Shown piece by piece: positions 12,706 to 14,840 of a DNA stretch of 64,000 bases (position 1 is its first letter; each line of letters begins with the position of its first letter). Position numbers and translations under genes: made by a program. This stretch comes from a virus (taxonomy: Duplodnaviria; Caudoviricetes), in the IMG/VR virus record IMGVR_UViG_3300049488_000018, positions 7,279-71,278 of that record. One strand, given 5' to 3'. A model generated the notes under the pieces. The model was not told the DNA's origin, searched no databases, and worked only from the letters and a program-made list of their open reading frames with translations.

Positions 12706-13081
12706 ATAGAATAAAGCAACCTATCGCACAACTAATCAAGGATCCGATCAATGCCCCAAAGCACGACAAAAAACTAAATAGCTCTCTCCACCCATTAGGA
12801 TGAAGCTCACCATCAGATCTCTGTATAACCATACGATCACCAATAGACCATTGACTATATTGCGCAACAGATAATTCCACATCAAATAGAGTACCATCAT
12901 CCATACGGACACCAACAATAGGTCTCGTAAGAACATGAGACTTATATGTATGTTCAACTTCCATCTTAGCTATAACCGTAACTGTAACAGGATACCTTCT
13001 CATGTAGTCATCGTTGAATGCATAAACATAACACAACAGAGTAACAACAAGGATCAATTGAAACCAATGCTTCTCCTTCAT
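12671..13081 (-). CDS. Membrane protein with two TM segments flanking a beta-rich domain
   Basis: N-terminal and C-terminal hydrophobic stretches. Confidence 0.75.
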   Translation of the reverse strand: MKEKHWFQLILVVTLLCYVYAFNDDYMRRYPVTVTVIAKMEVEHTYKSHVLTRPIVGVRMDDGTLFDVELSVAQYSQWSIGDRMVIQRSDGELHPNGWRELFSFLSCFGALIGSLISCAIGCFILYDWRRARGKNK

Positions 13082-13221
13082 ACATAGACTCCTATTAAAC
13101 CACCAACAACAATTAGAATAAAAAAACCCGCTATACCAAAGAAGGTAATAGCAGTAAAGTAATAAAGCAATAAAGCAAACTCCCGATAGGGATAAGACAA
13201 CTGATCAAGATAATCTGACAT
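13078..13221 (-). CDS. Small membrane protein (47 aa)
   Basis: Hand-translated MSDYLDQLSYPYREFALLLYYFTAITFFGIAGFFILIVVGGLIGVYV; GGAG RBS; ATGA overlap with the next gene. Confidence 0.6.
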   Translation of the reverse strand: MSDYLDQLSYPYREFALLLYYFTAITFFGIAGFFILIVVGGLIGVYV

Positions 13222-13361
13222 GATAACATACTCCAAGTGGGTTAGCAAGGGGGAAGCAAAATATATAGTAAAGTAAGGGGCTTAGAGAGACATGAGATTA
13301 GGCTCTCCAGGTTAGCTCACGAATATGCAATGATTACAGGGTGTTAGTAAAAATGTGGGGT

Positions 13362-13484
13362 GTTCCAGTGTAACAAAAAGAGGACTATAGAGAAAGAATA
13401 GGAAGTTCCTGTAAAAAGTTCCAGCAAGTTCCTGATAAATATAGAGAAAGTTCCTGTAATAACAAGAACAAAAATATGTTCCAG
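13362..13484. repeat. Cluster of GTTCCWG direct repeats (iteron-like)
   Basis: Copies at 13362, 13405, 13418, 13428, 13450, 13478 (a 7th at 13709); TATAGAGAAAG twice; an AT-rich tract follows. Confidence 0.75.
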
Positions 13485-13599
13485 TTATAATAAATAAAAA
13501 AGAATTATGCGCTTTAAAGCTATGGAAATGGGGAAAATATCCTAGCGAAGCATACTATCTTTTCCTCTCTTACCTATCTACCTATCATCATTGAGTTTT

Positions 13600-14080
13600 T
13601 CTACGGACTACGATATGGCTCAAAGAACCTATTATAAACTACATGTCCAGCATTTCGTCCAAGGGATGGACTAAGAGTGATGGGGGATATTAAAGCTTAC
13701 AGCAACAAGTTCCAGAGTTAGCTTCAGTAATAAACTATGCCTATTACTATGGCAATTATATTACTGGACTGCCACACATGATTAGTAATAACCTTGTGCG
13801 TGTAGAGTTATCCGTAACCGATGTGTGGGACTTAACCCATTCAGACTATCATTACGCGATAGAGCTCTAAGCTATCCTACTATGAGGTGGTGTAATCTTC
13901 TCATGTATGACAGTCCGAGTAATCTTTAAGCTAGTAGTAGTGACTCCCAAGGTCAAGGCCTTTGTCCAGAACAAGCTGGATCGTAATCCAAGGTGTGGGA
14001 TGTGTCTAAGGAGTGCCCTAAGGCTAGCGTTCTCATCTAACTCTCAGGGTTAGCTTCCGCAACTCTCCTACTACTAGCTA
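13600..14080 (-). ncRNA. Candidate large structured non-coding RNA (family unassigned; strand inferred from the flanking genes)
   Basis: No ORF of 60 aa or more. 12-bp inverted repeat 13929-13940/14068-14079 enclosing several hairpins; 8-bp helices 13725-13732/13759-13766 and 13772-13779/13821-13828. Confidence 0.5.
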
Positions 14081-14083
14081 CTG

Positions 14084-14281
14084 TTAGGACTCAAGCTCAC
14101 GTTTAAGAGCTTCGTCGTCCTTTAATTTGTCCAGCGGTATTACTTGACCCATAGGGGTGTGTTTGAGTAATAAACGAAATCCACAGTTTGTGCACGTGAA
14201 TGTATGCATAATGACGCAAGTAGCTCGTTTGTCTTCGCACACTTCACATAGCAAAGGTCCTTTTGTAAACGGTCCTGGCAT
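14084..14281 (-). CDS. Small zinc-ribbon protein
   Basis: CEVC...CTNC; AGGAGG RBS. Confidence 0.7.
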   Translation of the reverse strand: MPGPFTKGPLLCEVCEDKRATCVIMHTFTCTNCGFRLLLKHTPMGQVIPLDKLKDDEALKRELES

Positions 14282-14298
14282 ATGATCCTCCTGGATGC

Positions 14299-14329
14299 AA
14301 AAAGTGGGGCACCTCAGGCGAGGCACCCC
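14299..14329 (-). terminator. Rho-independent terminator
   Basis: GGGGTGCCTC-GCCT-GAGGTGCCCC-ACTTTTT; G-U pairs favour the minus strand. Confidence 0.6.
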
Positions 14330-14335
14330 GATGTT

Positions 14336-14665
14336 CTACGCTCCACACGCTTTGTGAAGTTTTTCTTTAACGGCTTTCATCTGGTCTTCAACCTGACGGT
14401 CGATTTCCTTGGACTGAATACGGATCTCACCAGCTTTCTTGGTGGTCTCATAGGCGTCCTTGACATTCTGGCCGATGTTGCTGAAGAAGCTACCGGTTCT
14501 GGCTATTACACCAGAGGCAACTACTTTAGCGCCATTGATAATGGTTTCAGGTTCAGGCTCACACCCTCCTGCGATAAGCAGCTTGTTTATCTCTTCGAGA
14601 CAACCTTTGTGCATTGCTGCTGTATTCCTCAACATCTGTTCTGCTTGCGGTGTTATTTTGGACAT
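14336..14665 (-). CDS. Hypothetical coiled-coil protein (109 aa)
   Basis: AAGGAGG RBS. Confidence 0.75.
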   Translation of the reverse strand: MSKITPQAEQMLRNTAAMHKGCLEEINKLLIAGGCEPEPETIINGAKVVASGVIARTGSFFSNIGQNVKDAYETTKKAGEIRIQSKEIDRQVEDQMKAVKEKLHKACGA

Positions 14666-14840
14666 GATAGTCCTCCTTATTATGATTTCGAAGTTAGCTT
14701 AATAACTCCAATGATGATACAGAGTAGGCCCACACCCATACAGAGTAAGAATATAGGTTGAGTTAGTAATTCAGGAACCCAACGGAATATGTTATACCAG
14801 GTGTAAGCAGTAAAGAAAAGGATGAATAGTACTCTCCAGT

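Follow-up and report, generated by a model that had tools for sequence, protein, structure and literature searches.

A large, modular structured RNA element of unassigned family upstream of a DNA repeat array in a clade of uncultivated freshwater phages

The stretch of DNA analyzed here, a window of 64 kb, is contained in a 71-kb IMG/VR virus record with an estimated completeness of 44% that belongs to a tailed phage with recognizable genes for a terminase, a portal and a major head protein, and the same DNA is present in a freshwater-sediment metagenome. Between position 1 and about 24 kb, the genes of the window lie on the minus strand, and within this block 835 nt separate the stop codon of a 65-aa ORF (14084-14281) from the next ORF (13078-13248). 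The features in and around this gap, ordered from 5' to 3' on the minus strand with positions in the window, are the following:

14306-14329, minus strand: intrinsic-terminator-like hairpin with U-run after the gene of a conserved 109-aa protein (10-bp stem with seven G-C pairs, then a T-run); upstream edge of the unit
14084-14281, minus strand: 65-aa ORF of zinc-ribbon type (CxxC-14-CxxC, C-terminal DE..RR.LE) with four invariant cysteines in seven lineages
13930-14078, minus strand: domain 1 (149 nt), closed by helix P1 and holding six further helices, including hairpin P1a at 14037-14053
13766-13916, minus strand: domain 2 (about 150 nt), with a long-range helix of 15 bp (13902-13916/13766-13780) as its closing stem
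13725-13766, minus strand: domain 3 hairpin, an 8-bp stem CAGUAAUA/UAUUACUG with an inner GCC/GGC stem
13695-13714, minus strand: invariant core word UGGAACUUGUUGCUGUA..GC, near-identical in ten of ten lineages
13657-13671, minus strand: core hairpin B, GUCCA-loop-UGGAC in the window and GCUCA-NNN-UGAGC/U in most relatives
13617-13629, minus strand: core hairpin C, a 5-bp stem with an invariant C-G closing pair and a 3-nt U-rich loop
13555-13582, minus strand: purine-rich tail (24 of 28 purines), likely the functional 3' edge of the conserved block
13489-13504, minus strand: T-run after a weak AT-rich hairpin, read from the sequence as a possible transcript end if the RNA passes the purine tract
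13359-13486, minus strand: AT-rich array of six same-orientation GGAAC(T/A) repeats with the consensus TWACAGGAACTT; a neighbor of the RNA, not demonstrated to be part of it
13438-13465, minus strand: sigma-70-like promoter candidate TTGTTA-16-TATATT within the array, facing the downstream genes (weak consensus hit, 9 of 12 matches)

An initial annotation had proposed a structured non-coding RNA of about 480 nt at 13600-14080, devoid of ORFs and impossible to assign to a family. We indeed found no ORF in the gap (13249-14083), where all three kinds of stop codon interrupt each of the six frames so that recoding would rescue no gene, and a translated comparison detected no reading frame that is kept among the relatives described below. 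The translated similarities that do occur among these relatives fall into several frames on both strands, are restricted to close pairs and span no more than 39 aa, a pattern that nucleotide conservation alone gives.

The region, an RNA polymerase (RNAP)-like protein and a 501-aa ORF had no BLAST match among 50,697 phage records, and no relatives emerged when IMG/VR was scanned with three proteins singly and with one protein alignment. The 991-aa RNAP-like protein encoded 5 kb from the gap has eight relatives of 48-86% identity, and their contigs show a syntenic gene-free gap. Using the conserved 109-aa protein encoded two genes upstream of the RNA as an anchor, we recovered homologous stretches from about ten lineages within one clade of uncultivated freshwater phages, always downstream of the 109-aa gene and in every lineage on the gene strand. 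Four of these lineages are complete (the window, L023, L002 and L032), six are cut near the 3' tail (L006, L038, L037, L035, L029 and L008) and L003 contributes an extra fragment. Scans of IMG/VR and GTDB genomes with DNA patterns returned 8, 1 and 6 matches, with none in a fourth scan, and we regard these as chance since none fits the domain-1 model introduced below; the GTDB matches also fail the core model at E values up to 1, and those in IMG/VR are weak and do not extend beyond the word used for the search.

The minus strand of 13600-14083 is predicted to fold with -145 kcal/mol (z -3.18), a value not reached by any of 100 dinucleotide shuffles, compared to a z of only -1.50 for the plus strand. 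A thermodynamic signal on the gene strand (z -3.2 to -4.2) was seen in four of five lineages tested, including L023 (-3.15), L032 (-3.88) and L038 (-4.20), and was lacking in L002 (z +0.4). Folding energies are lower on the gene strand than on its complement in four of the five, the two strands being equal in L032. The region is also more conserved than its surroundings, as the window and L023 share 79% identity across domain 2 and 85% across domain 3 and the core word, but only 67% across the 109-aa gene and 57% across the 65-aa gene.

Compensatory changes support the helices of domain 1. Its closing helix P1, described before as a 12-bp pairing of 13929-13940 with 14068-14079, is present with 11 bp in the window (14068-14078 with 13930-13940) and is paired in seven of seven lineages in a plain MAFFT alignment, with both sides changed at five of nine pairs. 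The 5' strand of P1 reads GCUAGUAGUAG in the window, CUGAUAGUAG in L006, CCAGUACUAG in L032, CUAGUGGUAG in L037 and CUGAUAAUAG in L002, each time with a matching 3' strand. Across P1 and P1a together, this unfitted alignment has 100% of its cells paired and double changes at 7 of 14 pairs, compared to 0-1 when the partners are slid. A covariance model of domain 1 (R1), built from four lineages only, recovers the domain in the window (53.7 bits, E 3e-10), L035, L002 and L029, and in the fitted alignment 94% of cells are paired with double changes at 23 of 37 pairs in seven helices, compared to 1-5 in slid controls. Among the smaller hairpins listed for this domain, CTAAC/GTTAG is present and covaries with CTCAC/GTGAG and CTGTC/GACAG, while TCCAG/CTGGA and GGAT/ATCC both exist and are common to L035 but overlap each other and cannot form together. 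A K-turn in the conserved internal loop of domain 1 was considered and dismissed upon inspection since the tandem G.A pairs are absent. In the fragment of L003, a hairpin resembling P1a/P2 stands alone directly after the terminator (L003:14217-14252) with compensatory changes CUGUG/CACAG and UAUC/GAUA; L003 is a close relative with a 109-aa protein of 91% identity, and its contig ends 140 nt past this hairpin.

The domain-1 helices contain 16 G.U and 5 A.C combinations, and this tolerance of G.U is confined to the gene strand. Together with the folding energies, these G.U pairs point to the gene (minus) strand as the one that encodes the RNA element. It has to be considered that the pairing might instead be used by the DNA in its single-stranded form, be it as a signal for primosome assembly or as a single-strand initiation signal next to an origin, because Watson-Crick covariation alone cannot separate DNA from RNA and the element does lie next to an origin-like array. 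We nevertheless consider this very improbable: G.U (in DNA G.T) is tolerated far above A.C and on the gene strand only, the gene strand folds more stably, and helices of 11-15 bp closing domains of 150 nt are unlike known single-strand initiation signals of 60-150 nt.

Domain 2 is common to the window, L023 and L035, and its closing helix has 13-15 bp in all three. This helix had been noted as a possible long-range pair GGACTG/CAGTCC, which turned out to be real and to extend to the full 15 bp, with covariation in L023 and L035. RNAalifold on the three sequences predicts 62 pairs of which 16 are compensatory. Two other helices proposed for this part fared less well: 13772-13779/13821-13828 does exist in the sequence but competes with the 15-bp long helix and has no counterpart in L035, and the CTATC/GATAG hairpin at 13846-13862 is lost in L023. 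Domain 2 also holds invariant single-stranded words such as CUACACGCAC and a hairpin GGGUUAAGUCCC (13827-13838, minus strand) that is kept in L023 and altered in L035; this hairpin would seem to be the same as one that is universally conserved in 16S rRNA (around E. coli position 1090). The domain 3 stem (13725-13732/13759-13766) was correctly identified before and is kept in L023 with a single A-U to G.U change, while the other lineages have a different hairpin at its place. More generally, the 5' domains are modular: L008 has none, domain 1 measures only 58 nt in L023 and 260 nt in L029, and the middle domain is a different one in L006 and L038.

The part common to all ten lineages is a 3' core of about 160 nt (13555-13714) that comprises, in this order, an 18-nt word, hairpin B, an AU-rich linker, hairpin C, a conserved A-rich stretch and the purine-rich tail. 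The extent proposed in the initial annotation was too short, as the element reaches at least 13555. The element lies on the minus strand, and the helices listed in that annotation leave this most conserved part mostly at their edge or outside. We see the T-run at 13489-13504 as perhaps the outer limit; L037 has a clearer hairpin and U-run at this place, and a terminator scan did not detect the T-run of the window.

The nearly invariant 18-nt core word (UGGAACUUGUUGCUGUAGC) is found just once in the window, and also just once in the full 71-kb record, and opens with GGAACTT, the same word as in the downstream repeats, and we did not find a conserved pairing partner for it. Within the core, hairpin C is paired in ten of ten lineages in the plain MAFFT alignment with double changes at three of five pairs, and an exhaustive helix scan identified it as the sole fully aligned covarying helix, without any further long-range core helices. 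Hairpin B is 87% paired in the unfitted alignment, in which three rows are misaligned, and by eye it forms in the window and in L023. Given that the core offers only these two small hairpins, the invariant word could be a DNA rather than an RNA signal. A sigma-54 or sigma-70 promoter in this word was rejected upon inspection since its GG-to-GC spacing is two bases short and no -10 element exists, and the word cannot be a general promoter of a phage RNAP since it is single-copy. The 15-mer AAGCTAACTCTGGAA occurs twice on the minus strand, at 13708-13722 just before the invariant word and at 763-777 within a coding ORF (537-2237).

The purine-rich tail measures 20-28 nt across lineages and keeps its composition but not its sequence, with a pure purine run of 12-22 nt at the aligned position in ten of ten lineages. 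A role as CsrA/Rsm-type sponge was discarded because GGA is missing from the purine tails of L038 and L002 and because the phasing of the repeats, which are words of 12 nt, is DNA-like. In the window and L023, the Shine-Dalgarno-like tail is followed by a three-codon frame, AUG CUU CGC UAG (13542-13553, minus strand), and the word GCUUCGC appears once or twice in other lineages without an AUG; we rejected a mini-ORF after the tail or a hidden protein gene because neither is conserved.

Taken together, we conclude with high confidence that the minus strand from 14078 to about 13555 encodes a conserved, modular and highly structured RNA element whose family is absent from Rfam, and its architecture of variable 5' domains (domain 1, domain 2 and the domain 3 hairpin) followed by a universal 3' core of about 160 nt is hardly in doubt either. 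The element has about 525-590 bases and, judged from the alignments, is kept by real compensating base-pair changes in about ten lineages. It satisfies the generic expectation for a structured non-coding RNA, which is compensatory changes above controls without a conserved ORF, and the earlier proposal is therefore borne out by the minus-strand fold signal, by covariation in fitted and unfitted alignments (domain 1, domain 2 and hairpin C) and by conservation above that of the flanking genes. These conclusions are limited to about ten lineages of one clade, the covariation count rests largely on the model-fitted alignment, and covariation was counted against slid-partner controls without R-scape statistics. 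The start and end of the RNA as well as its transcription are inferred in the absence of transcript data, no RNA run being listed for this DNA, and its function is inferred from anatomy only.

Rfam 15 has no match at gathering thresholds in the window, yields mere noise at E values up to 10 for the region 13100-14400 and has no match in seven relatives at E values up to 5. The element is therefore not GOLLD, ROOL or a packaging RNA (pRNA), and the inability to name a family persists. This status rests on Rfam 15, and a prior listing among the unnamed candidates of a catalogue of structured RNAs from phages (PMC10690425) is not excluded. GOLLD and ROOL are large "ornate" RNAs often found in phages and prophages (PMC12286853, PMC5737381). 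Our element resembles them in being phage-borne and several hundred nucleotides long, in its many covarying helices within closed domains, in its variable peripheral domains and in that its biochemical function is not known. A close rival to the reading that we favor below, which we consider possible without regarding it as probable, is that the element is such a free-standing, trans-acting ornate RNA like GOLLD, ROOL or OLE and a mere neighbor of the repeat array. It would then be a stable folded RNA that perhaps forms a particle with the zinc-ribbon protein or with itself and has a host or phage target. Its size, multi-domain architecture and covariation are typical of ornate RNAs, domains are gained or lost between lineages in modular fashion, the conserved hairpin and internal loops resemble docking or protein sites, and the gene of a small Cys4 protein adjoins in seven of ten lineages. 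Conversely, GOLLD and ROOL often adjoin tRNA genes, while ARAGORN found no tRNA or tmRNA gene in the 64-kb window, and the element matches neither of their Rfam models in the window and seven relatives. What is shared by all lineages is, different from GOLLD and ROOL, a short and weakly paired core that ends in a purine tract and is tied to DNA repeats, and the ornate domains are dispensable in L008 and L023. A trans-acting RNA would also leave the fixed partnership with the array, the shared GGAACTT and the purine tail conserved in composition only unexplained.

Upstream, the element directly follows the 65-aa zinc-ribbon-type ORF in seven of ten lineages, and its first helix begins 1-10 nt after the stop codon of this ORF, as had been noticed before for the window. 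The ORF matches no Pfam or PHROG family and is missing from L029 and L032, two lineages that retain the RNA. In L032, about 260 nt without ORF (L032:2700-2956) replace the zinc-ribbon gene between terminator and P1 and may be a further RNA domain. The encoded protein is a possible partner of the RNA. Further upstream, a GC-rich hairpin and T-run equivalent to the terminator of the window lie at the same place in L002, L006, L023, L029, L032 and L008.

This arrangement brings up another close rival, namely that the RNA is a cis-regulatory untranslated region (UTR), which would belong to the zinc-ribbon gene as its 3' UTR or to the downstream operon as a long leader. It could control transcript stability, read-through of the many intrinsic terminators by nut-/put-like antitermination or translation, with the repeats as operators for the promoter at 13438-13465. 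The tight distance between stop codon and first helix is in line with this, as is the terminator just upstream, which leaves no room for a promoter. Hairpins of 5 bp with short loops next to a conserved single-stranded word are reminiscent of boxB/boxA logic, the purine tail is Shine-Dalgarno-like with an AUG after it in four lineages, and the promoter-like site overlaps the repeats. Yet more than 500 nt are far above the size of known antitermination or leader elements, the RNA persists without the upstream ORF in L029 and L032, and about 300 nt and a probable promoter lie between the RNA and the next gene. The AUG after the tail merely opens the three-codon frame in the window and L023 and is absent in L032 and L037, with nothing conserved encoded. 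We find it rather unlikely that the element is such a UTR.

Downstream, an array of four to six TWACAGGAACTT repeats follows about 70-100 nt after the RNA in each of the four lineages with sufficient sequence (the window, L023, L002 and L032). Most repeats are spaced by 21-24 or 42-43 bp, which is close to two or four turns of the helix. The window contains 20 matches to the repeat; five of them are clustered on the minus strand within 81 nt, and nowhere else in the 64 kb does such a cluster occur. The array is 78% identical between the window and L023, which also conserves the promoter-candidate stretch at 13438-13465, and the G+C content is as low as 0.32-0.34 across 13300-13600. The promoter-like hits listed on the plus strand, from which an antisense RNA like RNA I of ColE1 would have to be read across the 5' part, fall outside of the element (13242-13269 and 14659-14686). 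The repeats could be iterons, operators or terminase sites. Like the iteron origins of lambda (ori), P1 (oriR) and P4 (ori/crr), the array consists of four to six repeats of about 12 bp that share one orientation, lie in AT-rich DNA and are mostly about two or four helical turns apart, so that what is expected of iterons in terms of orientation, roughly helical spacing and an adjacent AT-rich tract is satisfied. Unlike at our array, no large structured RNA is known at these origins, and their initiator gene overlaps or adjoins the iterons, while none is identifiable at the element. No replication gene is recognizable beside it, as the neighboring genes match no family or only families of unknown function, and the cumulative GC-skew minimum lies elsewhere, at 24.9 kb. 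This minimum coincides with the switch to divergent transcription, and we therefore discarded GC skew as an origin marker.

Another peculiarity of the locus is where assemblies stop: in five lineages, and with different assemblers, contigs or unitigs break off no more than about 10 aligned nt from the point at which the purine tract ends on its 3' side. These ends fall at about 13545-13560 of the window and comprise the L023 group (L021 and L026-L028; four runs), L029 and L030 (two assemblers), L035 and L008, and the perfect-match unitig of a second sample ends at 13555. The end of the tract is crossed by four contigs, among them the 71-kb record and one of 69 kb. The cluster of ends could reflect a strain-level conservation edge, poor coverage of AT-rich DNA or a real DNA end or discontinuity. 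If the latter, the RNA might be linked to packaging or a genome end, with the array as terminase-binding (cos/pac) site and a DNA end 3' of the purine tract towards which the RNA would be transcribed as in case of the phi29 pRNA. Besides the clustered ends, same-orientation phased repeats in AT-rich DNA would also fit cosB- or pac-type sites, and genes on the far side of the site are directed away from it, as would be early genes that enter first. Our element and the phi29 pRNA are both structured phage-encoded RNAs of an early region transcribed towards a possible DNA end, but the pRNA has only 120-174 nt with two interlocking loops, and the element is three to four times longer and without a match to the pRNA model of Rfam. 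Moreover, its genome-end reading rests on contig ends only: four contigs cross the site, in other lineages the ends are spread over 100 nt, a conservation edge or low coverage of AT-rich DNA breaks de Bruijn assemblies likewise, and the terminase gene is 16 kb away. A function in packaging thus appears improbable to us.

The interpretation that we tentatively favor, without transcript data and without considering it established or even probable, is that the element works in cis as an RNA of an origin or control site and that its purine tail hybridizes to the DNA beside the repeats. We prefer it because of the constant partnership with the repeats, the word shared between core and array, the single copy and the conservation of the tail in composition only. 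The RNA unit would be transcribed together with, or just after, the small zinc-ribbon gene, and the folded 5' domains would shape or stabilize the transcript. Its purine-rich 3' tail may then form an unusually stable RNA-DNA hybrid on the pyrimidine-rich template adjoining the AT-rich GGAACTT repeats, and this hybrid would open the AT-rich stretch or prime DNA synthesis there. Purine-rich RNA on a pyrimidine-rich DNA strand is known to form very stable hybrids, as in case of the retroviral polypurine tract, ColE1 RNA II and mitochondrial CSB II. The RNA would thus be a preprimer or origin-activating RNA comparable to ColE1 RNA II or the origin transcripts of T4 and T7, with the repeats as putative binding sites for a phage initiator or regulator.

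The analogy with ColE1 RNA II and the transcripts of T4 oriF/oriG and the T7 origin builds on three points: an inferred structured transcript, about 550 nt in length, precedes DNA that melts easily, it has a segment rich in purines or G that is suited for a persistent RNA-DNA hybrid, and it is a single-copy cis element. The hybrid of ColE1 is processed to a primer by RNase H; for the element, the purine tract conserved in composition is the sole feature that bears on such a hybrid. By contrast, there is no sequence relation to any of these, ColE1-type origins are not known to carry iterons while the element adjoins a repeat array, and the absence of recognizable replication genes nearby speaks against an origin or control RNA. 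The same is true for the cumulative GC-skew minimum at 24.9 kb and the lack of a folding signal in L002 (z +0.4), and the overlap of the repeats with a sigma-70-like promoter means that they may be no more than operators.

Structured RNAs of large size and with several domains are rare, and new classes have each led to new biology or to unexpected structures, with the GOLLD, ROOL and OLE assemblies seen by cryo-EM as recent examples (PMC12286853). The anatomy found here is unusual in its dispensable ornate domains, short universal core, purine tract conserved only in composition and coupling to a DNA repeat array, which makes the element a concrete and testable candidate for an RNA that acts at a phage origin or control region, and the covariance models R1 and R2 are now available for collecting more members. 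The most specific version of this idea, which we consider unlikely and offer as speculation, is that a folded preprimer RNA of about 525 nt starts the replication of a double-stranded DNA phage and that its polypurine 3' end sets the start point beside iterons. That this end would work like a retroviral polypurine tract is a similarly doubtful suggestion that rests on analogy. If the preprimer reading were true, these phages would have merged ColE1-type RNA priming with iteron-type origin control, and where assemblies break sharply after the purine tract, the DNA would have a real discontinuity or start site.
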